From a virus (taxonomy: Duplodnaviria > Heunggongvirae > Uroviricota > Caudoviricetes), in the IMG/VR virus record IMGVR_UViG_2711768053_000019: a stretch of 55,142 nt of DNA, one strand, 5' to 3'. The notes under the pieces were generated by a model. It had not been told where the DNA came from. It searched no databases and saw only the letters and a program-made list of their open reading frames with translations. Shown piece after piece: positions 9,719-54,454 of this stretch. A program made the position numbers and the translations under genes. Positions within the stretch are counted from its first letter, which is position 1, and each line of letters opens with the position of its first letter.

Positions 9719-9835
9719 AAGACAACTGTGTTAAGTTCTCGTTAACATTAGGGGTAACATAGGGAGTATAAGATAGTGGAATGCATCATTTTATTGTTGC
9801 GAAAATGATCGAACCAACTGGATATCGTGTATCAT

Positions 9836-11809
9836 ATGGAACCGATGATAACTTTCATGGAATGTCTCGGTATATATATGAAAATTAGACCACAGCAGCA
9901 CCTAATTAACATCCTGACTTCAACCAAACAACATCATCCAAATTTTACTCTTTTTCTTGGTGCAGGTGCTAGTATCTCAAGTGGTGTTGATAGTGCTGGT
10001 GGGATGATAAGGCGCTGGAGAGATGCTTACACTCTAATGTATGGAGAAGATGCTCTCAAAAAACAAGTTTGGTACGATAAAGATAATGAGTATTCAGAGC
10101 TTTTTGAAGCATTATATGATCAACCAACTCAAAGAAGAGAATTTATTGAAAGTTGTATTACCGCAGCTAAACCATCTTGGGGATACGTTTATCTCACAAA
10201 TCTATTGGATAAAGGCCATTTTAATACAATTTTTACGACTAACTTCGATGATTTAGTCAATGAAGCTTGCTTTACCTTTTCTAATAATCTGAGACCAATA
10301 GTGTGTGCCCACGATTCAAGTATCAACAGCATACGTTTAACCACAGCTCGGCCAAAAATAATAAAATTACATGGTGATTTTTTATTTGACAATATCAAGA
10401 ATACTATAAGGGAGCTTGAGTCACTTGAAGATAACATGAGGGCCAAATTTAGACAGTTTGCAACTGAATTTGGCATGATCGTTATTGGGTACTCGGGACA
10501 CGACCGTTCAATTATGGATACTCTCAATACGTTATTGCATTCCGGTAGTTGTTTTCCTCATGGGATTTATTGGTGTATCCGTGACTCAGACACTGAAAAA
10601 CTTTCTGAGCAACTTAAAAATCTGGCCCGCTTTCCTCATTTTCATCTTATTAAAATTAATGGATTTGATGAGTTCATGGCTGAATTACATTACGCATTAG
10701 GCTGTAATTTGCAGCAAGAGGTAGTAGAGCCATACTCTGCATTATCTAATAAACTAGATAGATATTTCTCTATAGCTGAAGAAGATGACGCAGATGTCCA
10801 GCATGAGATTATTAAAAGAGATATGAATAATCTTGCTGATCATGTCAGGAGAGTGAATACAGTAAGCCAGTTTGTAAAAAAAATAAAAGTACTTCTTTCA
10901 GAGAAAGACTCATCGTTAGATGATAATTCGATCACTAAATCTTTAGAAATAATGTTAAAGGAAACTAAATTTGCTGGTTCTCCTGAGGGGATTCATTTTT
11001 ATAATACCCCCAATTATTTGATTGCAAACTCTGCATTTCGTGCTGGAGAGTATAATGAATGTGTAGAATATGCTACTAAACATCTGGCTAATGGGAAATC
11101 TCTCGAAACAGAAGTATTAATACTTCGTTCCTATATTCATTTGGATAATGATTCTGAAATACAAAAGTCAATAGAAAGAATAACAAGTTATAACAAAATG
11201 AATGATGGTGAAGTTGGCAAGCTTGTAAATGGATTAGTGGACTTAATGGATGCTAAAAAATTCAAAATTGCGAATAGCCTTATGGACATACTTGAATCCC
11301 GAACAATACCGTCTAAACATAAGCAGTTATTGCTTATAAATAGAGTTCTTTGCAACAAATTACAAAAGCAGCCGCTTTCAGCAAAACAGCAACAAGAGCT
11401 TGAGGAAGTGCTGAATGAAGTGATAGATAAAAACGAAGCTTGGCTTGCTCTGGGGGCTGCTATACTTTTAGAAAAATGGGACATTGCTGAAGAAGTGCTA
11501 TCAGCATTAGATGAAACTGAGATAGTTACAATATTGACGCAATCAATGCCGATTTTTGACTTGATTTCTACAGAGTTTTATGAAAAGGTCAAGCTAGTAG
11601 CTATAGAGCGTGGTTATAACGTTTCATTCGAAGAAGAAACGGAGTTACCAGAGGTTGTTCCTGCTGAGGATGAGACTCAAAGTCTCAGTCCTGATGTGAG
11701 AGAAATACCTACAGATAAAAAGAAAGCCATAACTCACAAATCAGCAGACAATGATGAGGCATTTGATGGATTACGCACTGGCGAAGAAAGTATAAGCAAA
11801 CCAGCTTAA
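9836..11809 (+). CDS. SIR2-like domain protein with long helical C-terminal region (about 657 aa); candidate single-gene anti-phage NADase
   Basis: LFLGAGASISSG, FTTNFDD, IKLHGDF and VIGYSGHD align with conserved SIR2/ThsA-type motifs (GAGxS, TNYD, HG); no clear SD so start 9827-9875 is uncertain; region visibly AT-rich. Confidence 0.7.
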   Translation: MEPMITFMECLGIYMKIRPQQHLINILTSTKQHHPNFTLFLGAGASISSGVDSAGGMIRRWRDAYTLMYGEDALKKQVWYDKDNEYSELFEALYDQPTQRREFIESCITAAKPSWGYVYLTNLLDKGHFNTIFTTNFDDLVNEACFTFSNNLRPIVCAHDSSINSIRLTTARPKIIKLHGDFLFDNIKNTIRELESLEDNMRAKFRQFATEFGMIVIGYSGHDRSIMDTLNTLLHSGSCFPHGIYWCIRDSDTEKLSEQLKNLARFPHFHLIKINGFDEFMAELHYALGCNLQQEVVEPYSALSNKLDRYFSIAEEDDADVQHEIIKRDMNNLADHVRRVNTVSQFVKKIKVLLSEKDSSLDDNSITKSLEIMLKETKFAGSPEGIHFYNTPNYLIANSAFRAGEYNECVEYATKHLANGKSLETEVLILRSYIHLDNDSEIQKSIERITSYNKMNDGEVGKLVNGLVDLMDAKKFKIANSLMDILESRTIPSKHKQLLLINRVLCNKLQKQPLSAKQQQELEEVLNEVIDKNEAWLALGAAILLEKWDIAEEVLSALDETEIVTILTQSMPIFDLISTEFYEKVKLVAIERGYNVSFEEETELPEVVPAEDETQSLSPDVREIPTDKKKAITHKSADNDEAFDGLRTGEESISKPA

Positions 11810-14499: not shown

Positions 14500-15597
14500 T
14501 TAGAACTGGTAAACCAGACCTACAGCAACGATGTCATCAGTGCTTACACCGAGTGCTTTAGTGAAGTCATTTTTGTCAAGCAGGTTGATTTTGTAATCAA
14601 CGAAAGTAGACATATTTTTGTTGAAGTAATAGGTTGCACCTACATCAACATATTTGACTAAGTCCTGATCGCCCCATACTCCAAGATCCTTACCTTTAGA
14701 TTGCAGGTAAGCAACGGACGGACGCAGACCGAAATCGAACTGATATTGTGCAACAGCTTCGAAGTTTTGAGCTTTATTAGCAACGAAGTGATCAGCAAAT
14801 ACAGTCATATTCTGGGTTTCAGAATAGGTAGTGGCCAGGTAAATGTTGTTAGCGTCATATTTCAGACCTGCGGCCCAAACTTCTGCATTTTTACCGGAAG
14901 CAAATACTTCAGGAAGAACTTTCCCTGCATTAACTTGAGTGTCGGTACGATCAGATTTTGCATAAGTTGCACCGATACCGAATCCTTCGTATTCATAGGT
15001 AGCAGAGAAACCGAAGCCATCACCGTTACCTTCGGTGTAGTTATCGAAATCGCTACGATCGTTTTTGCCTTGGTACTGAGCAGCAAAGTTCAGACCATCA
15101 ACCAGGCCAAAGAAGTCGTTGTTACGATAGGTTGCAACACCAGTGGTGCGACCAGTCATGAACACATCTGTTTGGGTCCAGGTATCGCCACCGAATTCTG
15201 GCAGAACGTCAGTCCACGCACCGATGTCGTATGCTACACCGTAGTTACGGCCGTAATCGATGGAGCCGTAGTCACCGAATTTCAGGCCAGCGAAGGCAAG
15301 ACGGGTTTTATCTTTGGAGGAACCTTGAGATTCAGCGCGGTTGCCTTTGAATTCATATTCCCACTGACCGAAACCAGTCAGTTGATCGTTGATTTGGGTT
15401 TCACCTTTGAAGCCAAGACGGGCATAAGTAGTATCACCATCATCTGCATCATTAGAGGAGAAGTAGTGCTTAGCATTAACTTTCCCGTACAGATCCAGCT
15501 TGTTACTGTCTTTATTATAAATTTCAGCTGCCTGAGCAGACATCGCCATCAGTACTGATGCAGCTACAGCAGAAATTGCCACTGTTAATTTTTTCAT
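14500..15597 (-). CDS. nmpC: OmpC/OmpF-family outer-membrane porin (NmpC-like), 365 aa
   Basis: Signal peptide [24 protein letters not shown]-terminal ...VGLVYQF beta-barrel terminus; opposite strand to phage late genes; AT-rich upstream region 15598-16170. Confidence 0.85.
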
Positions 15598-19261: not shown

Positions 19262-19330
19262 GCGGGTCCTTTCCGGCGATCCGACAGGTTACGGGGCGGC
19301 GACCTCGCGGGTTTTCGCTATTTATGAAAA
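19262..19330 (+). other. cos: Prophage cos site (cosN 12-nt cohesive end GGGCGGCGACCT at 19294-19305, with adjacent cosQ/cosB)
   Basis: ...CGACAGGTTACG|GGGCGGCGACCTCGCGGGTTTTCGCTATTTATGAAAATTTTCCGG matches recalled lambda right-end/left-end junction; lies just upstream of Nu1. Confidence 0.9.
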
Positions 19331-19482
19331 TTTTCCGGTTTAAGGCGTTTCCGTTCTTCTTCGTCGTAACTTAATGTTTTTATTTAAAATACCCCCTGAA
19401 AAGAAAGGAAACGACAGGTGCTGAAAACGAACTTTTGGGCCTTTGTCGTTTCCTTTCTCTGTTTTTGGCCGTGGAATGAACA

Positions 19483-20002
19483 ATGGAAGTCAACAAAAAG
19501 CAGCTGGCTGACATTTTCGGTGCGAGTATCCGTACCATTCAGAACTGGCAGGAACAGGGAATGCCCGTTCTGCGAGGCGGTGGCAAGGGTAATGAGGTGC
19601 TTTATGACTCTGCCGCCGTCATAAAATGGTATGCCGAAAGGGATGCTGAAATTGAGAACGAAAAGCTGCGCCGGGAGGTTGAAGAACTGCGGCAGGCCAG
19701 CGAGGCAGATCTCCAGCCAGGAACTATTGAGTACGAACGCCATCGACTTACGCGTGCGCAGGCCGACGCACAGGAACTGAAGAATGCCAGAGACTCCGCT
19801 GAAGTGGTGGAAACCGCATTCTGTACTTTCGTGTTGTCGCGGATCGCAGGTGAAATTGCCAGTATTCTCGACGGGCTCCCCCTGTCGGTGCAGCGGCGTT
19901 TTCCGGAACTGGAAAACCGACATGTTGATTTCCTGAAACGGGATATCATCAAAGCCATGAACAAAGCAGCCGCGCTGGATGAACTGATACCGGGGTTGCT
20001 GA

Positions 20003-20028
<26 letters not shown>
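19483..20028 (+). CDS. Nu1: Terminase small subunit Nu1, 181 aa
   Basis: MEVNKKQLADIFGASIRTIQNWQEQGMPVLRGGGKGNEVLYDSAAVIKWY... matches recalled lambda Nu1. Confidence 0.95.
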
Positions 20029-23009
<2,981 letters not shown>

Positions 23010-23086
23010 AACCCTTGCTGCGTCTGGAATGTCGTTTTCCATGCTTTTGATGACCGTTCATCACCCTTCCAGTTTTTCGCGGTTTT

Positions 23087-23140
23087 GTGTATTGCAATGT
23101 GTATTGCAAATTGGCGATCGGGATGGGTGTGTATTGCAAA
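23087..23140 (+). repeat. Three direct copies of TGTGTATTGCAA near element left end (candidate integrase arm-type sites)
   Basis: Copies at 23087-23098, 23098-23110, 23127-23140; two further copies near right end at 33754-33776. Confidence 0.4.
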
Positions 23141-23157
23141 TCTCTTGAGGGCTTTTA

Positions 23158-24399
23158 ATGGCTATTGAAAACAAACTCAGTGACAAACTGTTAAAGAGTC
23201 TTGTCGGAAAACGGCAGGACAAACAAAAAACAATAGCGGATGGGCGCGGGTTGTCTGTGCGTGTAAGCATGGTTGGGGGGATCAGCTTTGTTTTTTACTA
23301 TCGTCTTGGTGGCAGGGAATCCCCTCCGGTATGGCTTACACTTGGTCGCTATCCTGACATGTCTCTTGCAACGGCCAGGCGCATGCGTGATCAGTGCCGT
23401 GAATGGCTGGCTGAAAATCTGGACCCCCGCAGGCAAATAAAACTTGCTGCCGAAAAAACTATGCAACCAGTGACCGTAAGGGATGCGCTGTTTTACTGGT
23501 ACGACAATCACGCCACAACAGCCAGAAAAGAGCATGAATATTTAATAAAACGATTTGAAAAGCATATCTTCCCCTATATCGGTGATATGGCTATAGAACA
23601 GTGCAAATTACACACATGGCTTACCGTCTTTGACAGGATCAAAAAAAATGCGCCTGTTATGTCTGGTGCAATTTTTCTTGATATCAAACAGGCGTTGCGT
23701 TTTTGTCGCGTCAGGCAATACATCGCGTGCGATCCCTTTGGAGATATTAACGTAAGTTATGTCGGGCGCTCATCCGGTATAAGGGATCGCGTTCTTAATA
23801 TCAATGAAACCGCTGATGTATGGTCTTATGCTTACGGTAATAATTTGCTAACTCTGTCATCAATATATAACCGAAGAATAATGGTTATCTGCCTGGTGTT
23901 TGGTTGCCGACAGCAGGAGGCGAGGCTATCCACCTGGGACGAATGGGATTTAAAAAACTGGGTATGGACAGTCCCAAAAGAGCACAGCAAAAACAAGGAG
24001 GCTATAGTAAGGCCTGTTCCTGACGGAATAAAACAATGGATCGTTAATCTTTACGCAGAAACAAAAAATCGCGGTTATGTTGTCGGTTGTGCTTTGCAAA
24101 GGGCGACAATAACAGGGGCTGCAAACAGAATATGCAGGCGTCTTGGTCATGATACTAATGGCTTGTGGTGCATACATGATTTCAGGCGCACATTTTCCAC
24201 TACGCTTAATGATATGGGGGCGGATCCTTATATTGTCGAACTTCTTTTAGGTCATAAAGTGAAAGGGGTTGCTGGTGTTTACAATAAAAGCAGGCATATA
24301 AAGAAAAAACTTGAGGTGCTTAATATGTGGGTTAATTACCTTAATACGATAGCAGGATTTAACAACAACGTTATCGAGCTTAATAAAGAGGTGGTGTGA
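23158..24399 (+). CDS. int: Tyrosine integrase of the inserted element (413 aa)
   Basis: C-terminal HDFRRTFSTTL...LLGH...VYNKSR (R-H-R-Y-type catalytic pattern); N-terminal arm-binding-like domain. Confidence 0.85.
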   Translation: MAIENKLSDKLLKSLVGKRQDKQKTIADGRGLSVRVSMVGGISFVFYYRLGGRESPPVWLTLGRYPDMSLATARRMRDQCREWLAENLDPRRQIKLAAEKTMQPVTVRDALFYWYDNHATTARKEHEYLIKRFEKHIFPYIGDMAIEQCKLHTWLTVFDRIKKNAPVMSGAIFLDIKQALRFCRVRQYIACDPFGDINVSYVGRSSGIRDRVLNINETADVWSYAYGNNLLTLSSIYNRRIMVICLVFGCRQQEARLSTWDEWDLKNWVWTVPKEHSKNKEAIVRPVPDGIKQWIVNLYAETKNRGYVVGCALQRATITGAANRICRRLGHDTNGLWCIHDFRRTFSTTLNDMGADPYIVELLLGHKVKGVAGVYNKSRHIKKKLEVLNMWVNYLNTIAGFNNNVIELNKEVV

Positions 24400-24400
24400 T

Positions 24401-24658
24401 ATGGCAATTTATTCTCTTGTTGATGAAAACGATTTGCGCACAATGAAGGACATTGATCGGTTCATTCGTGAAAAAGAGTGCATAGCACTTACCACGCTGG
24501 CAAACTCAACACGCTGGAAAATGGAGCAGGCAGGTAAATTCCCGCGACGTATCAAGATCGGTGAACGTGCTGCAGGGTATCGACTTTCAGAGGTTCAGGC
24601 ATGGATCCGTGGTGAGTGGCATCCTGGATGGAAACCTGGAAAAACAAAACAGCAATAA
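24401..24658 (+). CDS. alpA: AlpA-family transcriptional regulator / excisionase-like (85 aa)
   Basis: HTH LTTLANSTRWKMEQAGKFPRRIKIGERAAGYRLSEVQAWI; directly follows int in same orientation. Confidence 0.7.
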   Translation: MAIYSLVDENDLRTMKDIDRFIREKECIALTTLANSTRWKMEQAGKFPRRIKIGERAAGYRLSEVQAWIRGEWHPGWKPGKTKQQ

Positions 24659-24671
24659 CCAGTAAATAATG

Positions 24672-24694
24672 CCCCTCATCACGAGGGGTTTTTT
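24672..24694 (+). terminator. Intrinsic terminator after alpA
   Basis: CCCCTC-ATCAC-GAGGGG followed by TTTTTTGTC. Confidence 0.55.
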
Positions 24695-24714
24695 GTCTAT
24701 AAGGTAAAAACGCG

Positions 24715-25293
24715 ATGAATAAAAATATTGCCGTGACGGGCAAGGGGTACGCTCGTCCAGTGAAAAAATTCTGCGATATTCGTGATCTCGTCGTTCTGCG
24801 CTTTGATAGTGTGAACGTTCGTGTGGTGTATCTGAACGGCGATCCGTGGTTTGTTGCAAAAGATGTTTGTGCTGCGCTGGAACTAACCAATTCGCGTACG
24901 GCGTTGCAGATGCTTGATGATGATGAAAAGGGAGTAAATTTAACTTACACCCCAGGAGGAAATCAGAATATGAGAATTATCTCTGAGTCAGGTTTCTACA
25001 AACTAATAGCCCGCAGCCGCAAAGCAACGACGCCTGGCACATTTGCTCATCGTTTCAGTAACTGGGTATTCAGAAATGTGATACCAGGTATCAGAAAAAC
25101 GGGGACTTATGGTATCCCGTGGGGTGCATTACAGGATTTTTCCCGCCGTAAAGAGCAATATCAAATAAGTGCCAGCGAGAAGGGGAGGGAGCTACAGGCA
25201 TGTAAGCGCAAAAAGCGTGAGCTGGAGGAAGAAGAAAAAACGCTGATACGTGAATATCAGCCTGAGTTTTACTTTGGTAACCGCATTCAGTGA
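24715..25293 (+). CDS. Bro-N domain protein (antirepressor-like), 192 aa
   Basis: FVAKDVCAALELTNSRTALQMLDDDEKG pattern typical of Bro-N domains. Confidence 0.6.
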   Translation: MNKNIAVTGKGYARPVKKFCDIRDLVVLRFDSVNVRVVYLNGDPWFVAKDVCAALELTNSRTALQMLDDDEKGVNLTYTPGGNQNMRIISESGFYKLIARSRKATTPGTFAHRFSNWVFRNVIPGIRKTGTYGIPWGALQDFSRRKEQYQISASEKGRELQACKRKKRELEEEEKTLIREYQPEFYFGNRIQ

Positions 25294-25323
25294 CAAAACA
25301 AAGGCGACCGCAAAAGGGTCGCC
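25294..25323 (-). terminator. Terminator for minus-strand regulatory operon of the element
   Basis: GGCGACC-GCAAAAG-GGTCGCC hairpin followed on minus strand by TTTGTTTTGT. Confidence 0.45.
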
Positions 25324-25389
25324 AGTGGGAACAAGGGAAAACAAAAGCATCACCAACAATGCCACATTTGCGGCTGGTGGGCAATGTGA

Positions 25390-25569
25390 TCAGTCAGATT
25401 TGGTTCGTTCCAAGGTTTGCAACGAGAGCTTTTTCCTGTGCTCTTTAAGGAATTTCTCAAGAGCAAACGAACAAGGTGCGAATCTTTCTGATTCATGTTC
25501 ATGCGCTATATTTTTGCGTCGTCTCTTACGAGTTGGTGATGGTGTTTTGGTTGATTCTGTGTCGCTCAT
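25390..25569 (-). CDS. Small basic protein (59 aa) downstream of RHH gene
   Basis: Hand-translated MSDTESTKTPSPTRKRRRKNIAHEHESERFAPCSFALEKFLKEHRKKLSLQTLERTKSD; AGGACA SD; below ORF-track cut-off. Confidence 0.35.
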   Translation of the reverse strand: MSDTESTKTPSPTRKRRRKNIAHEHESERFAPCSFALEKFLKEHRKKLSLQTLERTKSD

Positions 25570-25626
25570 GGTGCTGTCCTGTAAAGCAATGCGCCTGCGT
25601 TCCTCAAACTATGGCGCTGATATTGG

Positions 25627-25932
25627 CTATTCATGCTCTTTGACCTTGCGTCGCTGGAGTTCTTCACGCGCGACGGTGACGAGTTGCCCGATCTCCTCGG
25701 CTGCTTTGATGCCGATTTGTTCGACCTTAGCCAGGGCATCCAGTGACGACACAAGGGGATTTTCTCCGCTGCCTTCTGCTTGGCGGCGGGCTATTTCTCC
25801 GCGCATGGCGGTTACGATAAATCCGGCATTGCTTTCACCGTCCAGCTTAACGGATTCCATCCCTTGCATAACATCTAGTGGGACTCTGACAGTTGTCAGT
25901 TGTGATTTTGCGTTTTTGTTAGCCGTTGCCAT
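25627..25932 (-). CDS. Putative ribbon-helix-helix repressor of the element (101 aa)
   Basis: TTVRVPLDVMQGMESVKLDGESNAGFIVTAMRGEI fits RHH beta-strand/helix pattern; divergent from replication/packaging operon. Confidence 0.45.
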   Translation of the reverse strand: MATANKNAKSQLTTVRVPLDVMQGMESVKLDGESNAGFIVTAMRGEIARRQAEGSGENPLVSSLDALAKVEQIGIKAAEEIGQLVTVAREELQRRKVKEHE

Positions 25933-25993
25933 TTCTGAAACTCCTAATCATCGGTGTGTTTCAGTATACACAAAAAAAGAAATACAAAAAGCC

Positions 25994-26031
25994 TTGACGT
26001 GTGTTTCATGCGCTCATAACATGAAACACAC
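25994..26031 (+). promoter_or_regulatory. Promoter/operator of element rightward operon: TTGACG -35 with 12-bp perfect inverted repeat
   Basis: GTGTGTTTCATG-cgctcataa-CATGAAACACAC (25999-26031) overlapping TTGACG (25994-25999) and TAACAT-like -10. Confidence 0.45.
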
Positions 26032-26122
26032 CGAAAGGATTGTTGAAATACAAAGAGCAACGCCCCGCAGTGCTGGGAACACATACGGGGCGTCTAACCA
26101 ACAACGTAAACTAGGAGCCGTT

Positions 26123-26320
26123 ATGGTTGCTGTAAATCATATACCACACCTTGTACACACACAAACGGCCTTTGTGTGGCGTTTTCTGGCACTGAGTGCC
26201 GGAGAATCTCAAATCATCCACGTAACCGCCTGGACGGAACGCGAAGCGCGTAGCCGTTGCCCGTCCGGTTGTGTTGCTGTATTCGCTGCAAAAATCCGCC
26301 AGGGAGTGAGTCATGCTTAA
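26123..26320 (+). CDS. Small protein (65 aa), first gene of element rightward operon
   Basis: AGGAG SD 5 nt before ATG; stop overlaps next start (ATGCTTAA). Confidence 0.45.
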   Translation: MVAVNHIPHLVHTQTAFVWRFLALSAGESQIIHVTAWTEREARSRCPSGCVAVFAAKIRQGVSHA

Positions 26321-26498
26321 AACCTTCCGTGTATTTGCCCGAGCTGTTAACCCAATAGGCCACACAATTGGTATCGCTCAGAATGTGAAGGCTGTTAATG
26401 TTCAGACGGCTATTGCTGCGGTGAGAAGCGAATCATCAGAATATGGCTTATCACAAGTCATTATTTCAGCAGTGTATGAATTAAAAGAGGTGCATTAA
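26313..26498 (+). CDS. Small hypothetical protein (61 aa)
   Basis: Translationally coupled string of small ORFs. Confidence 0.4.
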   Translation: MLKTFRVFARAVNPIGHTIGIAQNVKAVNVQTAIAAVRSESSEYGLSQVIISAVYELKEVH

Positions 26499-26689
26499 TG
26501 CAGGAAATTACATTACACGAAGCCGCTGAACGTGCGCACCAGACAGAAATTATTTGCCGCCTTCTTGAGGTATACCCGAACAAAATTACAGATGCTGATA
26601 TATCCGCACTGGCGAGCCTACTGGCGCGTCTTTCGGGAAGTGTCGCTAGTTTTTTGATTGAGGAAGAAAGTAAGCTGGTGGGGGATTAA
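26498..26689 (+). CDS. Small hypothetical protein (63 aa)
   Basis: Coupled start/stop overlap. Confidence 0.4.
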   Translation: MQEITLHEAAERAHQTEIICRLLEVYPNKITDADISALASLLARLSGSVASFLIEEESKLVGD

Positions 26690-26911
26690 ATGAATACAGA
26701 ACGGGAAGTCTTTTTTAAATTGTTAGCATGTGCAGAAAGTTCATTAACTTTAAATAATTCAGCAAAAGCAATATTAAATATGTGGCTTGATTGCATAAAT
26801 GACAATGAAGATGCAAATATTGCTTATGGCCTGTTGTCACTTATTGATGAATCAGCAGAAAAACTCAATGACGCAATAAATAGTGCCCTGCTATCAAATA
26901 AGTCGAGTTAA
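26690..26911 (+). CDS. Small hypothetical protein (73 aa)
   Basis: ATG immediately after previous stop; AT-rich. Confidence 0.4.
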   Translation: MNTEREVFFKLLACAESSLTLNNSAKAILNMWLDCINDNEDANIAYGLLSLIDESAEKLNDAINSALLSNKSS

Positions 26912-26928
26912 GTCGAGGAATAAATAAT

Positions 26929-27228
26929 ATGGAAATGAAAAATTCTGGCTTTATTGCCAGCGGCCCCGCTCGAACTGAATTTATGAACGGCGATATTTAC
27001 CGCGATAAATACGGCGGCACGGTAACGATTAAAGGCGTGGCAGAACGGCGCATCACTTACCGCCGTGAGGGGTATAGCTATGACTGCGTGATGCCTGTTT
27101 ATCAGTTCCGGCGTGATTTTTCCCTGGTATATGCCGCACCCCGCAGTAAGCCCATCAGCAGGGAAAAAGCGTGGGGAAATATCCAGAAAATGAAAACCAT
27201 GATTAACGGATTCAGAGGTAAAAAATGA
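26929..27228 (+). CDS. Hypothetical protein (99 aa)
   Basis: ATGA overlap with primase gene start. Confidence 0.45.
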   Translation: MEMKNSGFIASGPARTEFMNGDIYRDKYGGTVTIKGVAERRITYRREGYSYDCVMPVYQFRRDFSLVYAAPRSKPISREKAWGNIQKMKTMINGFRGKK

Positions 27229-28979
27229 AACTGGCACCGAACGTAAAACAGCAGTCACGCGGCATAAAACACAAAGGAACAGAAGTCATTATTTTTGCGG
27301 GTAGTGATGCCTGGGCACACGCGAAACAATGGCAGGAACATGATGCGCGTATGGCCGGAGATAATGAGCCTCCTGTGTGGCTTGGGGAGCAGCAGCTATC
27401 CGAACTGGATAATCTGCAAATTGTGCCGGAAGGCCGAAAATCAGCACGCATATACAGGGCCGGATATCTTGCGCCTGTAATGATAAAGGCGATTGGTCAG
27501 AAGCTGGCGGCAGCAGGCGTACAGGATGCAAATTTTTATCCTGAGGGTATGCACGGCCAGGAGGTGCAGAACTGGCGCGAATATCTGGCCCGTGAACGCC
27601 AGAATCTTTCTGATGGTCTGGTCATTGAGCTTCCGGTAAAGCAAAAGGCGCAACTTTCGCAGATGGCGGACAGTGAGCGCGCGCAGTTGCTTGCCGATCG
27701 CTTTGATGGCGTTTGCGTACATCCTGAAAGTGAAATCGTTCACGTATGGCGCGGCGGGGTATGGTGTCCGGTCAGCACAATGGAACTTAGCCGCGAAATG
27801 GTGGCGATCTATTCAGAGCACAGGGCCACTTTCAGCAAGCGCGTAATCAATAACGCCGTGGAAGCGTTAAAAGTTATTGCCGAACCAATGGGCGAGCCGT
27901 CTGGCGATTTGCTGCCGTTCGCCAATGGTGCGCTTGACCTGAAAACGGGGGAATTTTCCCCGCACACGCCGGAGGACTGGATCACCACGCACAACGGCAT
28001 TGAGTACACGCCACCAGCACCAGGGGAGAACATCCGCGATAACGCGCCAAACTTTCATAAATGGCTTGAGCACGCAGCCGGAAAAGACCCGCGCAAGATG
28101 ATGCGTATATGTGCCGCGCTGTACATGATTATGGCGAACCGGTACGACTGGCAGATGTTTATTGAGGCCACCGGAGACGGCGGGAGCGGTAAAAGTACAT
28201 TCACACACATAGCCAGCCTTCTGGCAGGGAAACAGAACACGGTAAGCGCTGAAATGACATCGCTTGATGATGCTGGTGGACGTGCGCAGGTTGTCGGGAG
28301 TCGTCTTATCGTCCTGGCTGACCAGCCGAAATATACAGGCGAAGGAACGGGCATCAAGAAAATCACAGGCGGCGACCCCGTGGAAATTAACCCGAAATAT
28401 GAAAAGCGTTTCACGGCGGTAATCAGGGCGGTGGTGCTGGCGACCAACAACAACCCGATGATATTCACCGAACGGGCCGGAGGTGTGGCACGTCGTCGCG
28501 TGATTTTCCGTTTCGACAATATCGTCAGTGAGGCCGAAAAAGACAGGGAGCTACCGGAAAAGATTGCGGCTGAAATCCCCGTTATTATCCGCCGATTGCT
28601 GGCGAACTTTACCGACCCTGAGAAGGCACGGGCTTTACTACTGGAACAGCGTGACGGTGATGAAGCACTGGCAATAAAGCAACAGACGGATCCGGTTATT
28701 GAGTTTTGCCAGTTCCTGAATTTTCTGGAGGAAGCGCGCGGCCTGATGATGGGTGGCGGTGGTGATTCAGTGAAGTACACGACCAGGAACAGCCTTTACC
28801 GCGTCTATCTGGCGTTTATGGCATACGCGGGCAGGAGCAAACCGCTAAACGTGGCTGAGTTCAGCAAGGCCATGAAGCCAGCGGCGAAAGTTTACGGGCA
28901 TGAATATATTACGCGAAAAGTTAAGGGAGTAACGCAGACCAACGCAATTACAACAGACGATTGCGACGCGTTTTTATAA
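27225..28979 (+). CDS. Primase-helicase (P4 alpha / D5-like, P-loop NTPase), 584 aa
   Basis: Walker A GDGGSGKST, Walker B-like LIVLAD; size and position typical of satellite Pri-Rep. Confidence 0.8.
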   Translation: MKLAPNVKQQSRGIKHKGTEVIIFAGSDAWAHAKQWQEHDARMAGDNEPPVWLGEQQLSELDNLQIVPEGRKSARIYRAGYLAPVMIKAIGQKLAAAGVQDANFYPEGMHGQEVQNWREYLARERQNLSDGLVIELPVKQKAQLSQMADSERAQLLADRFDGVCVHPESEIVHVWRGGVWCPVSTMELSREMVAIYSEHRATFSKRVINNAVEALKVIAEPMGEPSGDLLPFANGALDLKTGEFSPHTPEDWITTHNGIEYTPPAPGENIRDNAPNFHKWLEHAAGKDPRKMMRICAALYMIMANRYDWQMFIEATGDGGSGKSTFTHIASLLAGKQNTVSAEMTSLDDAGGRAQVVGSRLIVLADQPKYTGEGTGIKKITGGDPVEINPKYEKRFTAVIRAVVLATNNNPMIFTERAGGVARRRVIFRFDNIVSEAEKDRELPEKIAAEIPVIIRRLLANFTDPEKARALLLEQRDGDEALAIKQQTDPVIEFCQFLNFLEEARGLMMGGGGDSVKYTTRNSLYRVYLAFMAYAGRSKPLNVAEFSKAMKPAAKVYGHEYITRKVKGVTQTNAITTDDCDAFL

Positions 28980-28992
28980 TTTTTTGTAAAAG

Positions 28993-29216
28993 CCATCTAC
29001 CCCATCTATCTGAACAAAATAAACTCATATTATTCAACATGATAAGTGGGTATAGGGCTAGGTAGAAGGCTAATAAAAGCTCTCTACCTCTTCTACCTGA
29101 TTTTATCAGTTTCAGGTAGCAGGGTAGACGGCAGGTAGAGGAGTCAAAAAGTTATCTACCCGCTGAAAGCCGCGCCATTACTGACATGATGAGCATTCGG
29201 GTAGATGGGTAGAGGG
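28993..29216 (+). repeat. Element replication-origin candidate: at least nine GGTAG(A)/CTACC iterons
   Basis: GGTAGAAGG, CTCTACC, TCTACCTG, CAGGTAGCAGGGTAGACGGCAGGTAGAGG, TCTACCC, GGGTAGATGGGTAGAGG immediately downstream of primase-helicase. Confidence 0.5.
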
Positions 29217-29263
29217 GGGGAGGCACAACTAAAAACTTTTTAAACGAGGGGGGGTGAAAATAA

Positions 29264-29578
29264 ATGCGCATACATAAAAATCACTTAACAAACATGCCAG
29301 CCGAAAACATGAATCAGGGGCGACAAATGACCAAAATTCGCAGAGACAGAACACAGGCAAAATATAAAGCGTTAGACATGACAGAGCTTTCCTTAAAGGT
29401 GGCAATCAAAGCGATAGACCACCACACACGGGCAGGATACGCGAAGGAACATCCCGACCTGATAAGCGCATTCATGACCACAGCAGCGGCAAACTTTGCC
29501 ACGCTGACAGAACGGGAGATTGCCGAAGCGGAACAGGTGACAACCATCAATGTTAAAACCGGAGAGCAGACAGCATGA
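29264..29578 (+). CDS. Hypothetical protein (104 aa)
   Basis: G-rich SD upstream; coupled to next gene. Confidence 0.4.
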   Translation: MRIHKNHLTNMPAENMNQGRQMTKIRRDRTQAKYKALDMTELSLKVAIKAIDHHTRAGYAKEHPDLISAFMTTAAANFATLTEREIAEAEQVTTINVKTGEQTA

Positions 29579-29997
29579 CAGCACAGATAGCGGCTTACGG
29601 GCGGCTGGTGGCTGACCCGCAGTTAAAGACCACCAGCAAAGGGACACAAATGGCGATGGCGAGTATGGCGGTTCCCCTGCCGTGCAGCCAGGCAGATGAC
29701 GGAACGGCGACGATGTGGTTATCCGTCCTGGCGTTTGGCAGACAGGCCGACGCACTGGCAAAACACCACAAAGGCGAACTGGTGAGCGTGGCGGGTAACA
29801 TGCAGGTAAGCCAGTGGACAGGCCAGAACGGCGAAACGCGGCGGGGCTGGCAGGTTATCGCAGACAGCGTAATCAGTGCGCGAACGGCGCGACCGGGCGG
29901 CAAAAAAGGCCAGCAGGGGCAGGCCACTGACGCACTGAACAGGGCAAAACAACAGTCGGGGAATGATGATCCGTACGGCGATAATATACCGTTTTAA
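29575..29997 (+). CDS. SSB-like protein (140 aa)
   Basis: Acidic C-terminal tail ending DDPYGDNIPF as in SSB C-termini; OB-fold-like core. Confidence 0.55.
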   Translation: MTAQIAAYGRLVADPQLKTTSKGTQMAMASMAVPLPCSQADDGTATMWLSVLAFGRQADALAKHHKGELVSVAGNMQVSQWTGQNGETRRGWQVIADSVISARTARPGGKKGQQGQATDALNRAKQQSGNDDPYGDNIPF

Positions 29998-30208
29998 ATT
30001 CTACAAACAAAAAGATGCCGGAAAAAAATAGATTTTCCGGCATGCTACATAAATCCCGACCAAAGGAAGTAAATACATTAACACGAATTATCAGCACTGA
30101 AGTTGTTACGGCATATTTTATACAACATTGCACTTGGTTGCATGTATTCGCATAGCAGACATCGGTAATAGAATATATTCATAATTATTTGTAATGAATG
30201 TAAAGAGG

Positions 30209-31255
30209 ATGAGTATGGTTGATTTATATTCGCCTACACAGCTTGTGCAGGTGGCTAATGCTGAAGATGTGCAAAAAAAATTAAATGCGTTGTTTACCAG
30301 TTTGTTTTTCACTCGCTCGGTAATGTTTGAATCGAGAGACATTATTCTTGATACGATCGACGATCCAAATATCCCGATCGCGGCGTTTTGCTCTCCTATG
30401 GTGGGCAGTAAAGTTTCACGAGATGAGGGATACGAATCAAAAACAATTCGTCCAGGTTATATGAAGCCGAAAAGCAGCATTGATCCAAATAAGTTAGCTG
30501 TGCGCCCTGCTGGTGTGTCACCTGAGCAATACAATGCTTTTGGGGCGCGTAATATTAAAGTTAAACAGGCGATTGTAAATCAGGCTAAAGCTATTCGTGC
30601 ACGTATTGAATGGCTTGCTGTTCAGGCAATCACAACGGGGAAAAATATCATTGAGGGCGATGGTATTGAACGTTATGAGCTGGACTGGAATATAAAACCA
30701 CAAAATATCATCACTCAGTCTGGCGGTACTGAGTGGTCAGGTAAGGATAAAGAAACTTTTGATCCAAATGATGATATTGAGAGCTACGCAGAATTTAGTG
30801 AGGGCGTCACTAATATCATCATTATGGGTGGTAATGTATGGAAGAAATACCGTTCATTCAGAGCGATAAAAGAGGCTTTGGATACCCGTCGTGGTTCTAA
30901 TTCCGAACTGGAAACGGCCCTTAAAGACCTTGGTGATTCGGTGAGTTTTAAAGGGTATATGGGCGATGTTGCGATTGTTGTTTACAGCGGGCGTTATACC
31001 GACGAGGACGGAACAGAAAAACATTTCCTTGATCCTGATTTGATGGTGCTTGGCAATACGGCTCTTCAGGGGATTGTCGCCTATGGCGGTATTCAGGATC
31101 CGGAGCTAATCCGAATGGGGCTGACTAAAGCCGAACTTGCACCGAAAAACTATATTGTGCCTGGTGATCCGGCTATTGAATATGTGCAGACACATTCAGC
31201 ACCACAGCCAATACCGGCCCGCATCAATCGTTTTGTTACCGTTCGCATTGGCTAA
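30209..31255 (+). CDS. Major capsid protein paralogue (lambda E-like, divergent), about 349 aa
   Basis: Shares blocks with prophage E (36325-37350): ITQSGGTEWS, DTRRGSNSELETA, DVAIVVYSG; start 30209 or 30215. Confidence 0.75.
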   Translation: MSMVDLYSPTQLVQVANAEDVQKKLNALFTSLFFTRSVMFESRDIILDTIDDPNIPIAAFCSPMVGSKVSRDEGYESKTIRPGYMKPKSSIDPNKLAVRPAGVSPEQYNAFGARNIKVKQAIVNQAKAIRARIEWLAVQAITTGKNIIEGDGIERYELDWNIKPQNIITQSGGTEWSGKDKETFDPNDDIESYAEFSEGVTNIIIMGGNVWKKYRSFRAIKEALDTRRGSNSELETALKDLGDSVSFKGYMGDVAIVVYSGRYTDEDGTEKHFLDPDLMVLGNTALQGIVAYGGIQDPELIRMGLTKAELAPKNYIVPGDPAIEYVQTHSAPQPIPARINRFVTVRIG

Positions 31256-31264
31256 GGGGGAGCA

Positions 31265-31606
31265 ATGGCTACTCATTACACTGAACTCATGGCTGGCACT
31301 GAAGCACTGGTGACTACGCTGGGGATATTTTCAGCTAATAAAGGGGTAATTCCTGCATTTACGCCACTGATGCAGGAAGATGCAACAGGTGCACTGGTGG
31401 TATGGGATGGTTCGAGCGTAGGTAAAGCGGTTTATGTTTCCGCTGTACAAATCGACACAGCGAAAAAAACACAGGCACAGGTTTATAAGACAGGTGTTTT
31501 AAATGTTGATGCTCTGAACTGGCCTGAGTCTGTAAAAGAACTGTCGGCAAAGGTTGCCGCGTTTGTTGGCTCAGGTATTTCTGTTCAGCCGCTGGCTCGT
31601 GTGTAA
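31265..31606 (+). CDS. Head decoration protein paralogue (lambda D-like, divergent), 113 aa
   Basis: Same length and position as D after E; VVWDGSS..., YKTGVL pattern parallels prophage D ([10 protein letters not shown]..., YKSGTF). Confidence 0.6.
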   Translation: MATHYTELMAGTEALVTTLGIFSANKGVIPAFTPLMQEDATGALVVWDGSSVGKAVYVSAVQIDTAKKTQAQVYKTGVLNVDALNWPESVKELSAKVAAFVGSGISVQPLARV

Positions 31607-31617
31607 AGGGGGATACA

Positions 31618-32001
31618 ATGCAGAATCATTACAATGACCTTAAGCCAATTGCCGAAATGATGTATCCGGATCCAGCAGTAGAGGAATTAAAGGCTATTGC
31701 TGACAAAATGCGTTTAAGTGAACGCCTTGTTGATATGAATCAGGTGATGGAACTTACTACCCTTAGCCGTCGCACATTGCTAAACCTTGAGGCTCGCGGA
31801 GAGTTCCCCGAACGCGTACAGGTTACGGAAGGGCGTAAGGCCTGGTATTTAAGTGAAGTGATCGACTGGATAAACAATATTCCTCGATCTTCTGAATATT
31901 GCCGCGTACCTGTCCCAAAAAAGCCAGATGCGGCGCTATGCCTCAAGATTGAGCGTGTACGTCGCAATGCACGGGATGGTCGCTATAAGTTGATTGGTTG
32001 A
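31618..32001 (+). CDS. AlpA/MerR-like HTH protein adjacent to element cos (127 aa)
   Basis: LTTLSRRTLLNLEARGEFPERVQVTEGRKAWYLSEVIDWI HTH; ends 25 bp before cos-like site. Confidence 0.55.
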   Translation: MQNHYNDLKPIAEMMYPDPAVEELKAIADKMRLSERLVDMNQVMELTTLSRRTLLNLEARGEFPERVQVTEGRKAWYLSEVIDWINNIPRSSEYCRVPVPKKPDAALCLKIERVRRNARDGRYKLIG

Positions 32002-32025
32002 TGAAATTAGGGCCCGTTCTGGCTG

Positions 32026-32091
32026 GCGGGTCCTTTCCGGCGATCCGGTAGGCTACGGGGCGGCGACCTCGCGGGTTTTCGCTATTTATGA
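32026..32091 (+). other. cos: Second cos site belonging to the element (cosN GGGCGGCGACCT at 32058-32069)
   Basis: 21 bp (32026-32046) and 34 bp (32058-32091) identical to prophage cos 19262-19282 and 19294-19327; flanking sequence on both sides differs. Confidence 0.8.
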
Positions 32092-32202
32092 GCCTTTTTC
32101 GGGTGCTGGTGGTGGTTTTGTTGTTCGCTCTATCTCTATGAATAAAAAGGAAAAGATAAAGCCAATATACCAACCTGAAACATTACTTAAGTGGGGATAT
32201 TG

Positions 32203-32745
32203 ATGAAATCGCACCTGATGAACAAAAAAAACATGGCGCAAAGCTGCCGTGTAAGTGCGACAGCGTTCGACAAGTGGGGAGTGACTCCCGTTGAACGTAA
32301 AGGCCGCGAGGCGTTTTATGATGTTGCCAGCGTAATAGACAATCGGGTTAGCAATGCAATTAACCAGATTACAGACGACAAAGGCGAGATTGATGATGAT
32401 GAACTCCTACGAGTCAGGATCAGATTGCTGACAGCACAGGCAGAGGCGCAGGAGCTTAAAAACGAGCGCGAACGCGGCGACGTTATTGATACAGCGTTTT
32501 GTATATACGTGCTTTCAAAATTGGCGAGTCAGATTTCTTCAATCATGGACAGCCTGCCGCTTGCCATGACAAGGAAGTTTCCCGACATGAAGCCGTCTAT
32601 GCTGGATGGACTGAAAAAAGAAGTTATCAGAGCCTGTAACGCATGCGCAAAACTTGACGAAAACATACCGCTGATGCTGTCCGATTATCTGATGGAAACT
32701 GCCGGAAACGTACCGGATAAGTTGCAGCCGAATAAAGATAAGTAA
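32203..32745 (+). CDS. Terminase small subunit paralogue (Nu1-like, divergent), about 180 aa
   Basis: Alignable with prophage Nu1: AQAEAQELKNERERGDVIDTAFCIYVLSKLASQISSIMDSLPLAMTRKFP versus AQADAQELKNARDSAEVVETAFCTFVLSRIAGEIASILDGLPLSVQRRFP; directly downstream of element cos. Confidence 0.75.
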   Translation: MKSHLMNKKNMAQSCRVSATAFDKWGVTPVERKGREAFYDVASVIDNRVSNAINQITDDKGEIDDDELLRVRIRLLTAQAEAQELKNERERGDVIDTAFCIYVLSKLASQISSIMDSLPLAMTRKFPDMKPSMLDGLKKEVIRACNACAKLDENIPLMLSDYLMETAGNVPDKLQPNKDK

Positions 32746-32756
32746 CGTAGTACGCT

Positions 32757-33038
32757 ATGACTGAATCCGAAATACTGCGATTAATCCGCCGTGCTTGTGG
32801 AATCAGCAAGCAGCATGACGAACAGGCCACGCAGCCGGACAGCGTGACCGCAGATAATTATGTGCGTGTAGTGGCTGAGGTGATGCGCCGTGACGGTATT
32901 GAGCTTAACGGCGTGGATATGCGCAACATACGAACAAGAGTCCTTGAGTTGCTGGCATATCGTCGCCGTTCTCAACAACGGAGGGAGAGCGCGAAAAATA
33001 CTTACCAGTGGAAGAAGCCGGAACGATTGCGGCGGTAA
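32757..33038 (+). CDS. Hypothetical protein (93 aa)
   Basis: Last ORF of element before noncoding repeat region. Confidence 0.4.
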   Translation: MTESEILRLIRRACGISKQHDEQATQPDSVTADNYVRVVAEVMRRDGIELNGVDMRNIRTRVLELLAYRRRSQQRRESAKNTYQWKKPERLRR

Positions 33039-33055
33039 CTTGCTGATATTCCCGA

Positions 33056-33440
33056 TAACGCAAAATTGCGCTGGCTGACTTGTTGCATTGCAAAAAGTTA
33101 AGCAGGAAGGCACGGCCTGTAAGATGGGATGCAGTAAGTAGTTCAAGGCTACCTTGTGCTGGCACGCACAGTTAAGCCGTCGGTGCTGGATATCCCCCAC
33201 TGGGGGAAAAGCTGGCTACATCCCTCACATCTGAGGACTGATAACGCGACATTGCGCTGGCTGGCAAAGTGCAAAATTGCACGATGGCCTAACCCATTGA
33301 TTATTTCGAAAACCTGCAATGCAGGAAATCGGGGAAGTAAGCCTAAGCTATTAATTGTTTCGAAAACCCCCATTGGGGGATGTCGGGAAAGTAAGACTAA
33401 CCCATTGATTCTTCCACAATCCTCAATTTGAGGAGGCCGG
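33056..33440 (+). repeat. Noncoding cluster of direct repeats and short palindromes at element right end
   Basis: Three units at 54-bp period each with a 13-bp palindrome (CCTGCAATGCAGG 33313-33325, CCCCCATTGGGGG 33367-33379, CCTCAATTTGAGG 33421-33433); ATAACGC.A.ATTGCGCTGGCTG duplicated at 33056 and 33241. Confidence 0.5.
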
Positions 33441-33853
33441 AACGTCTACATAGCTGCATCGCCGTAATGATGATTCAGCCCACCAGCCAAATCAGCACAG
33501 CAACGACAGAATAGCCCGACACAGAAAAACCACGAATATGGGGTTTTTGTTATGACATGGTCATGATGACCACTCATACAAAACAGGTAAAGCCCACCAG
33601 CCTGATTAAAGGTTAACCGGAAAAAAGCCAGGTATCCAATCTCGATATGGGGATCCCTATATCGACATTAACGCCCACTAAAACTGTGCATATATGCATA
33701 GAAAAAGCATCCACCAGCTTTATGACGGATGCCGCTCATCTTATAAATAATCGTGTATTGCAGTGTGTATTGCGACTCCTTTAAACGATAGGTCTGAGCA
33801 TTCGTAATGTACTGTTTTTAAATTTTATTTTTTCCTGTCTTTTCATAAAGGCG

Positions 33854-34627
33854 ATGTATGCCGCCACCATTGAGAGTGAGCTGGATACGCAGTCAGCGAT
33901 GGATTTTATTCTGGGCGCGAACAGTCAGGAGCAGCGGGAAAGGCTGACCGGCTGGATTGGTGAAATTGCCGCGTATTACGCCGCAGCGCCGGTCCGGCTG
34001 GGAGGCGCAAAAGTACCGCACCTGATGCCGGGTGACTCACTGAACCTGCAGACGGCTCAGGATACGGATAACGGCTACTCCGTGTTTGAGCAGTCACTGC
34101 TGCGGTATATCGCTGCCGGGCTGGGTGTCTCGTATGAGCAGCTTTCCCGGAATTACGCCCAGATGAGCTACTCCACGGCACGGGCCAGTGCGAACGAGTC
34201 GTGGGCGTACTTTATGGGGCGGCGAAAATTCGTCGCATCCCGTCAGGCGAGCCAGATGTTTCTGTGCTGGCTGGAAGAGGCCATCGTTCGCCGCGTGGTG
34301 ACGTTACCTTCAAAAGCGCGCTTCAGTTTTCAGGAAGCCCGCAGTGCCTGGGGGAACTGCGACTGGATAGGCTCCGGTCGTATGGCCATCGATGGTCTGA
34401 AAGAAGTTCAGGAAGCGGTGATGCTGATAGAAGCCGGACTGAGTACCTACGAGAAAGAGTGCGCAAAACGCGGTGACGACTATCAGGAAATTTTTGTCCA
34501 GCAGGTCCGTGAAACGATGGAGCGCCGTGCAGCCGGTCTTAAACCGCCCGCCTGGGCGGCTGCAGCATTTGAATCCGGGCTGCGACAATCAACAGAGGAG
34601 GAGAAGAGTGACAGCAGAGCTGCGTAA
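33854..34627 (+). pseudogene. B: Portal protein B, 3' portion (257 codons), resumes exactly at ...YAATIESELD
   Basis: MYAATIESELDTQSAMDFILGANSQEQRERLTGWIGEIAAYY... continues lambda B to its C-terminus by recall; in frame with 5' portion if element excised. Confidence 0.85.
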
Positions 34628-53878: not shown

Positions 53879-54454
53879 ATGGATTTCAGAATGAGTGAAC
53901 AACCACGGACCATAACAATTTATAATCTGCTGGCCGGAACTAATGAATTTATTGGTGAAGGTGACGCATACATTCCGCCTCATACAGGTCTGCCAGCAAA
54001 CAGTACCGATATTGCACCGCCAGATATTCCGGCTGGTTTCGTGGCTGTTTTCAACAGTGATGAGTCATCGTGGCATCTCGTTGAAGATCATCGGGGTAAA
54101 ACGGTTTATGACGTGGCTTCCGGCGACGCGTTATTTATTTCTGAACTCGGCTCATTACCGGAAAATGTCACCTGGTTATCCCCGGAAGGGGAGTTTCAGA
54201 AGTGGAACGGCACAGCCTGGGTGAAGGATACGGAAGCAGAAAAACTGTTCCGGATCCGGGAGGCGGAAGAAACAAAAAACAGCCTGATGCAGGTAGCCAG
54301 TGAGCATATAGCGCCGCTTCAGGATGCTGTGGATCTGGAGATCGCAACGGAGAAAGAAACCTTGTTGCTGGAAGCCTGGAAAAAGTATCGGGTGTTGCTG
54401 AACCGTGTTGATACATCAACTGCACCGGATATTGAATGGCCAGCCCTACCGTAG
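53879..54454 (+). CDS. tfa: Tail fibre assembly protein Tfa, about 191 aa
   Basis: [54 protein letters not shown]... lambda Tfa by recall. Confidence 0.8.

Follow-up and report, generated by a model that had tools for sequence, protein, structure and literature searches.

A second cos site in a helper-embedded satellite, with helper-type cosQ and cosN, a candidate cosB of its own, and a Nu1-family small terminase gene

A stretch of 55,142 nucleotides (hereafter, the window) was analyzed, in which two cos sites were found, one in a lambda-like prophage and the other in a satellite element lying within that prophage. The question raised by this locus is how the second site is recognized, i.e., whether satellite DNA may be cut by the large terminase (TerL) of the helper prophage under the specificity of a small terminase (TerS) of its own. 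cosN is the site of the staggered nicks and cosQ is needed for the termination of packaging, and both are used by gpA/TerL.

The two cos copies and the satellite that carries one of them

The host of the satellite is a lambda-like prophage with its int gene at 1-1164. The Nu1 gene of this helper was found at 19483-20028 (+ strand; Pfam Phage_Nu1, E=2.5e-100) and gpA/TerL at 20003-21928 (+ strand; Pfam GpA_ATPase and GpA_nuclease). The helper cos (19264-19459, + strand) is in essence a lambda cos. It is composed of cosQ, i.e., GGGTCCT (19264-19270, +), which is the same in the satellite copy and in lambda, the cosN cohesive end (19294-19305, +), R3 (19346-19358, +), I1 with a match to the IHF consensus (19372-19384), the inverted R2 (19401-19413, −), and R1 (19447-19459, +). 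Exact lambda-type R sequences were confined to this site, at 19346 (+), 19401 (−), and 19447 (+). The naming of the lambda subsites followed the lambda sequence and was checked against PMC9026076.

In the initial annotation, identical sequences were described within 19262-19327 and 32026-32091, with cosN shared. Pairwise alignment of both cos regions confirmed the repeat, which is ungapped with 63/66 bases identical, and all three mismatches fall in the cosQ-cosN spacer (GACAGGT vs GGTAGGC). cosN is indeed common to both copies, but the conserved block takes in cosQ too, i.e., it comprises the lambda cosQ, the cosN region including its cohesive end of 12 nt, and 22 bp rightward, ending about 15 bp short of the lambda R3 position (bp 50-65). 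The perfect 12-mer GGGCGGCGACCT is present in exactly two copies in the 55-kb window, at 19294 and 32058. The number of exact repeated 37-mers expected by chance was about 8e-14, and between 17 and 40 kb of the window the block was the sole sizeable direct repeat of helper and satellite.

The flanks were compared with the register set by cosN. Identity between satellite and helper was 27% over the 100 nt of the left flank, 42% over +35 to +134 of the right flank, and 19% farther right. The left border of the block is abrupt, and here, as for the lambda R sites, the earlier claim that the flanks diverge completely stands. On the right it was slightly overstated, as a weak T-rich resemblance to the helper is retained over the first ~40 nt.

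The satellite spans 10,900 bp (22962-33861, + strand) and is marked by the direct repeats AAGGCGAT(T/G)TATG at 22949-22961 and 33849-33861. The helper portal gene B is split by it, with Phage_portal_2 positions 2-242 at 22128-23009 and positions 238-354 at 33854-34627, so that no portal protein would be made before the satellite excises. In the supplement of PMC10111431, E. coli elements of 11 kb are entered under B_Phage_portal_2_241, and their identity block is given as 'aaggcgat'. On sequence grounds, the satellite is a helper-embedded PICI as defined in PMC10111431, and the element is already catalogued there at site B:Phage_portal_2:241. At least 53 complete E. coli genomes carry a copy of it with ~99.8% identity, likewise in portal genes. 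The module of cos and TerS was found in 272/5,426 complete E. coli genomes at no less than 80% coverage, i.e., about 5%, and such a wide occurrence argues for a maintained function.

The satellite encodes an integrase, an AlpA-like protein, a Bro-N protein, an Icd-like protein, small ORFs, a D5-type primase/helicase, and SSB. Its late module consists of a gpE-family major capsid protein (30194-31255, + strand; Pfam Phage_cap_E, E=3e-41), a gpD-like decoration protein (31265-31606, + strand; PHROG head decoration), a second AlpA-like gene, cos, the Nu1-like TerS, and a 93-aa ORF. The second AlpA-like gene lies just upstream of cos (31618-32001, + strand) and was predicted to be a winged-helix protein (Pfam Phage_AlpA; PDB 8C3T, E=8e-11). 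This cos-adjacent gene is conserved across genera together with the capsid-decoration-cos-TerS module (3405-3788 in loci L089-L093), and it may regulate packaging or participate in it. The capsid-forming PICI (cf-PICI) class was rejected, as only capsid, decoration, and TerS are encoded, without portal, protease, connectors, or TerL. The P4-like class was rejected on gene content.

The integrase, which has an arm-binding domain, belongs to the tyrosine recombinases, and its identity to a capE-site integrase is 53%. Arm-type repeats, GTGTATTGCA, were found at both ends of the satellite (23088-23140 and 33755-33775). One related record (L011, IMGVR_UViG_2778261172_000002) holds two satellites in one helper, placed in the portal gene and in the capsid gene, the latter with an integrase 53% identical. 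In the right arm of the window satellite, two copies of GATAACGC..ATTGCGCTGGCTG lie at 33054-33263, and three 54-bp tandem units, each made of CTAACCCATTGATT followed by a short hairpin, lie at 33289-33434. Two of these units hold perfect IHF consensus sites (33290 and 33398). No Rfam family matched the right-arm repeats, and the Rfam search of the satellite gave no family.

TIR-domain and abortive-infection genes are present in related satellites (L085:13084-13959 and 21534-22295; L086:13380-14063), and their accessory positions correspond to Bro-N/YnfO-like genes or non-coding DNA in the window satellite. A mechanical ORF of 356 aa at 25250-26320 matched no family and is probably not a gene; RefSeq has two other genes in the same interval, of which one is YlcI/YnfO-like and lies on the minus strand at about 25627-25932, and one is Icd-like and lies at about 26123-26320. 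In the helper, a 660-aa SIR2-domain protein (9827-11809, GC 35%) matched the PADLOC Aga_SIR2 models (E=5e-63), and its gene probably serves anti-phage defence. A general porin is encoded in the prophage at 14500-15597 on the minus strand (Pfam Porin_1, E=1e-156), annotated as OmpC in related prophages. An Rfam IS009 match of 218 bits was found at 54222-54420, in the prophage tail-fibre region by the right end of the window.

Subsites of the satellite cos and their conservation

The satellite cosQ heptamer, GGGTCCT, lies at 32028-32034 (+ strand), i.e., at -30 to -24 relative to the cohesive end and 23 bp before it. This spacing to cosN fits that of a lambda-type cos (about 17-30 bp). The cohesive-end 12-mer GGGCGGCGACCT was located at 32058-32069 (+ strand) and is flanked by ACG and CGCG, which widens the satellite cosN to about 32055-32073, the same as in the helper. 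The spacer to the right of cosN, CGCGGGTTTTCGCTATTTATGAGC, lies at 32070-32093 (+ strand) and is common with the helper as far as 32091. As long as the composite is unexcised, its cos sites at 19294 and 32058 are 12,764 bp apart, point the same way, and have identical ends. Packaging from one cos to the other in a concatemer could give chimeric, circularisable molecules.

On the cosB side, neither the lambda R consensus nor the IHF consensus (I1) was found in the satellite at 32092-32200. The R3-I1-R2-R1 layout of a lambda-type cosB, to which Nu1 and IHF bind, is absent from the satellite cos, and another conserved element occupies the R3 position. This element, GGTGGTGGTTTTGTT (32108-32122, + strand; +51 to +65), occurs once only in the window and contains GGTGGTGGT at 32108-32116. 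It is the candidate cosB element and a putative binding site of TerS. A candidate for an inverted second TerS site, ACACCAACCTGAA, was found at 32167-32179 (− strand; +110 to +122), with ACACCAACC at 32167-32175 as a part of it. Its reverse complement includes GGTTGGTGT, an imperfect inverted copy of the R3-position motif at about 59 bp from the R3-position element. The geometry recalls that of R3 and R2, by which the site at +110 to +122 may be R2-like.

When R-like repeats were sought within the single satellite sequence, only weak inverted matches were obtained; the conserved elements of the cosB side were recognized by comparative alignment, for which a single sequence is insufficient. A scan of IMG/VR gave 114 relatives; 80 loci were retained, and these represent 63 distinct cos-to-terS sequences with TerS 79-100% identical. 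cosQ was conserved in 62-63/63 of these cos regions. In cosN, positions -3 to +5 were invariant, +6 to +13 were polymorphic, and +14 to +16 were invariant or nearly so. The spacer from +19 to +36 was invariant in all 63. The R3-position element (+51 to +65) was invariant in 62-63 of the 63 with variable adjoining positions, and the candidate inverted site (+110 to +122) was invariant in 63/63 with variable adjacent bases and was partially retained in other genera. Positions between the conserved blocks were variable. Among related satellites, two unrelated upstream haplotypes meet precisely at cosQ, and common descent of a larger segment would not by itself account for the conservation.

Satellites of Enterobacter and Citrobacter extend this comparison. 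Their TerS is only ~60% identical, their replication module is another one, and their flanks have diverged, but cosQ and the same subsites are retained at the same spacing. The R3-position form in these satellites is GGTGGTGGTGTTGTT, with spacing unchanged, and the gene order MCP, decoration, AlpA-like, cos, TerS is kept. In N15-class phages, i.e., N15 and a Qin-like prophage, GGTTGTTGTTTAAT is found at the R3 position, and the satellite matches it at 15/19 positions.

The cohesive end itself varies. In the 80 loci plus the window, GGGCGGCGACCT was found in 62 sequences, GGGCGTCAGGCG in 8, GGGCGGAAGGCG in 4, GGGCGGCAGACG in 3, and other 12-mer variants in 4. Variant ends also occur in the lambda-cosB phages of IMG/VR, namely GGGCGGAAGGCG in 21/120 and GGGCGTCAGGCG in 2/120. 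The polymorphism is common to satellites and lambda-cosB phages and has probably been exchanged between them. It was predicted that the 12-nt end of a satellite would covary with that of its embedding prophage, and this prediction failed on two capE-embedded composites, L085 and L086. In both, the satellite end is GGGCGTCAGGCG (L085:20127 and L086:20127) and the prophage cos end is GGGCGGCGACCT (L085:5012 and L086:5107), with 5 positions different. The identity of both ends in the present window is thereby seen, at the level of sequence, not to be a lineage-wide requirement. This mismatch may be read in three ways, i.e., TerL may tolerate changes at +6, +8 to +10, and +12, the helper may be another resident phage and not the embedding prophage, or those satellite copies may be inactive. 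Such mismatched satellite ends raise the question of how much of the cosN sequence is read by a TerL of the lambda family.

Exchange at cos thus happens, as the cohesive-end haplotypes common to both groups indicate, and the shared block could be a recombination scar or decaying remnant, left by past exchange with the helper and without present function. Among the IMG/VR contigs, no excised or cos-terminated copy of the satellite was found, and the integrase never follows the right arm, which would suit such a remnant. But the block is confined precisely to known functional subsites, and its three spacer mismatches argue against a fresh exchange. These subsites do not vary among the 63 divergent relatives or between genera, whereas the flanks do. 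Moreover, the homologous site of EcCICFT073 is functional (PMC6092414), and the terS ORF is intact and conserved in hundreds of genomes. Given the limitation of the block to functional subsites, the cross-genus conservation, and the widespread intact terS, a scar is very improbable.

The satellite small terminase and the proposed packaging route

The satellite TerS gene (32203-32745, + strand) encodes 180 aa and begins 145 nt past the satellite cosN, which bears out the earlier statement that a Nu1 paralogue lies downstream of the element cos. Pfam Phage_Nu1 (PF07471) scored 85.7 bits over aa 70-152, for a cut-off of 30, and the RefSeq name of the protein is 'terminase small subunit'. In BLASTP, it was aligned to helper Nu1 with 38% identity (E=2e-36) from residue 3 through the last residue of Nu1. 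N15 gp1 was the nearest phage relative, with 47.6% identity, and no phage record with a TerS more than 60% identical was found.

The DNA-binding domain (aa 1-50) showed 55-57% identity to N15 gp1 and to a Qin-like prophage TerS of 168 aa, vs 36% to helper Nu1, and by its sequence it belongs to the N15 class. The following region (aa 51-107) is 37% identical to helper Nu1. In the C-terminal part (aa 108-167), the identity was 40-45% to N15 gp1 and the Qin-like TerS and 43% to helper Nu1. By hand count on the alignment, the last 40 residues were about 35% identical to the gpA-binding tail of Nu1, and E. coli copies bear an extra tail of 13 residues. A profile of the satellite and N15 class matched residues 5-101 of lambda TerS (6HN7_B) at E=9e-6. 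The AF2 model, of modest confidence (pLDDT 68.6), predicted a strand, helix 1, helix 2, a wing, and helix 3, with long helices after. Foldseek of this model against PDB gave no match at E<=0.001, and the top weak ones were MerR-type winged-helix proteins.

The region of the recognition helix reads ..KSC(R/K)V(S/G)(A/V)TAFDKW in satellites and ..SS(I/L)GISVQAFDKW in the N15 phage class. This difference parallels that at the R3 position, where satellites have GGTGGTGGT and the phage class has GGTTGTTGT. The covariation of helix and motif, seen in two classes only, is suggestive of TerS reading the R3-position site.

From this kinship with N15, the cos-terS module could be a late-gene cassette captured from the N15/Qin-like class, serving mobilisation by that class and not by the embedding prophage. 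Both the DNA-binding domain, which is nearer to N15 gp1 and the Qin-like TerS than to helper Nu1, and the 15/19 matches at the R3 position are in line with it. The late zones of PICIs have been proposed to acquire late genes of helpers (PMC10111431), and the satellite ends of L085 and L086 are unlike those of the embedding prophage. These points are set against the lack of a closely identical TerS among phage records and the distribution of the motifs, in which satellites of several genera share GGTGGTGGT against GGTTGTTGT of the phage class, pointing to a long-standing, satellite-specific lineage and away from a recent capture. Also, cosQ, cosN, and the spacer in the window almost perfectly match the embedding helper. 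Such a capture is regarded as improbable.

The shared block probably forms the core of a PICI packaging site, in which the subsites of the helper TerL and the spacer of fixed length to their right are kept and an own cosB and TerS serve recognition. The proposed route starts from the observed anatomy, homology, and conservation. After induction, the composite would excise and replicate, and the satellite would next excise, restoring the portal gene, and then form concatemers. Satellite TerS would bind the satellite cosB, i.e., GGTGGTGGTTTTGTT and its partial inverted copy, and place the helper TerL on cosN. Heads built by the helper would be filled with the DNA, which would be cut at a downstream cosQ/cosN. 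By analogy with the multimers of EcCICFT073, four units of 10.9 kb (43.6 kb) would fit a lambda-sized head. The binding of TerS to cosB, the recruitment of the helper TerL, the cleavage, and the packaged form are the predicted parts of this route. The initial annotation had proposed that the satellite is cut by the helper large terminase with a small-subunit specificity of its own. The kept cosQ and cosN, the swapped recognition side, and the own Nu1-like gene agree with this, but the layout as such was already known from EcCICFT073.

For the recruitment of TerL, direct contact is favoured over a bridge through helper Nu1, because the satellite TerS is full length, unlike Rpp. However, the same satellite TerS sequence occurs in helpers with strongly differing TerL N-termini, which, together with the poorly matching tail, makes a direct and specific binding to TerL uncertain. 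The idea that the C-terminal subtype of satellite TerS tracks the TerL type of the helper was rejected, as one lambda-type gpA is accompanied by either subtype.

The Rpp of EcCICFT073-type PICIs, a protein of 139-154 aa with a TerS-like winged-helix domain and without the TerL-binding tail, heterodimerises with the helper TerS, blocks the recognition of the phage cosB, and redirects the terminase to the PICI cos (PMC6092414, PMC6739421, PMC9026076). According to Murialdo and Feiss (PMC9026076), the helper TerS is required in this type of piracy only for the contact with TerL. The satellite TerS could act as a similar adaptor, forming mixed dimers or oligomers with helper Nu1, by which Nu1 would be blocked from the lambda cosB and would give the contact with TerL. 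Such action has been demonstrated for this neighbouring class of PICIs (PMC6739421, PMC9026076). By eye, the central helical region is the best conserved between satellite TerS and helper Nu1; in the computed identities, aa 51-107 stand at 37% and aa 108-167 at 43%, and the extreme C-terminus is poorly conserved. The finding of one TerS with two TerL types fits an adaptor as well. Against it, the satellite TerS is of full length and aligns through the C-terminus of Nu1, unlike the short Rpp, and no sequence similarity between it and RppA was found, i.e., BLASTP of the two gave nothing at E<=100, and phmmer against PDB returned no Rpp. An adaptor role is less probable than direct recruitment but has to be taken seriously.

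Direct recruitment leads to a wider, tentative proposal. There may be a second, Rpp-independent route in E. coli and its kin, composed of a complete Nu1-family TerS, a (GGT)3TTTGTT cosB, and direct recruitment of TerL, and it is put forward as a fair possibility but not as the expected outcome. If true, the satellite would be independent of the helper small terminase and able to use the TerLs of several lambdoid classes, and its cohesive end would be free to differ from that of the helper.

As a natural satellite TerS that retains the C-terminal region, this protein offers a test of the idea of Murialdo and Feiss on TerS-TerL bridging, and of how rigidly TerS must place TerL at cosN. With its presence in about one in twenty complete E. 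coli genomes, the module bears on the movement of pathogenicity and defence islands. The conserved R3-position motif is also a target for the engineering of cos-plasmids or 'drones' with an orthogonal packaging specificity.

Comparison with known systems

Satellites in late genes are already known, and so is a PICI cos that combines cosQ/cosN of the helper type with a foreign cosB. A 'small terminase' is given as a generic core component of PICIs (PMC10085698). In the literature searched, no lambda-cos PICI was found in which Rpp is replaced by a complete N15-class TerS of the Nu1 family and the R3 position is taken by a conserved (GGT)3TTTGTT element, and nothing linking Nu1 with PICIs was found beyond the review of Murialdo and Feiss (PMC9026076).

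The EcCICFT073 type is a closely similar system known from experiment. These PICIs have helper-like cosQ/cosN, no helper cosB, and rpp right after cos (PMC6092414, PMC6739421, PMC9026076), and the cos1 of EcCICFT073 was shown to be functional (PMC6092414, PMC6739421). The DNA of this element enters full-size heads in multimeric form. The capsid and decoration genes of EcCICFT073 are dispensable for transfer (PMC6092414). The late zone of EcCICFT073 (locus L004) is collinear with that of the window satellite, i.e., gpE-like capsid, gpD-like decoration, a small gene, cos, a specificity gene, and a 93-aa ORF. In cos1, too, cosQ, cosN, and the +13 to +34 spacer are nearly identical to those of a lambdoid helper, the helper cosB is absent with no IHF site or R2/R1 array, and the specificity gene follows directly after cos. 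The difference lies in that gene. RppA follows cos1 (a 6HLK homologue, E=5e-31), whereas a 180-aa full-length TerS of the Nu1 family is found here, and the latter keeps a region homologous to the TerL-binding part of Nu1, which Rpp is without. Membership in the Rpp type was rejected, as the PICI backbone and the non-helper cosB are present, but an rpp gene is not. EcCICFT073 is also placed in the chromosome, whereas the window satellite is inside a helper late gene.

A further likeness was observed within cos1. At L004:37583-37593 (+55 to +65), ACCACCACC was found, which is the reverse complement of GGTGGTGGT (window 32108-32116) and lies within a few bp of the position of GGTGGTGGT in TerS-type satellites. 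An inverted 9-mer at the same position in Rpp-type PICIs may reflect a cosB code that is shared or cross-recognized among enteric satellites.

The helper-embedded PICIs of PMC10111431 resemble the window satellite in being 11-kb elements, co-oriented in a lambdoid portal gene, with the att block aaggcgat and the same four zones (integration, Bro, replication, and late). The model element of that study, 11capE, differs in that it is without terS and has a cos region of 258 bp at 90% identity with its helper, whereas the window satellite has just 66 bp in common with the helper and carries terS. That study contains no analysis of cos subsites, and Nu1 is unmentioned in the paper and its supplements.

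With N15, the satellite shares a TerS DNA-binding domain of the same class (57% identity) and a cosB centred on a single R3-position element without I1. Both have mosaic domains, in which an N15-type DNA-binding domain is joined to another C-terminal class. However, the R3 sequence of the satellite deviates at 4/19 positions, its TerS has a distinct C-terminal half and the 13-aa tail, and its module is without an adjacent terL and is carried by a satellite.

The TerS of SaPIs is alike in its role, i.e., a small terminase of the satellite steers the helper large terminase to satellite DNA. In SaPIs of Staphylococcus, however, packaging is by headful (pac), the TerS family is unrelated, and a separate inhibitor, Ppi, is needed. 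In contrast, the window satellite, as its sequence indicates, would use cos-type cutting with cosQ and cosN shared with the helper.
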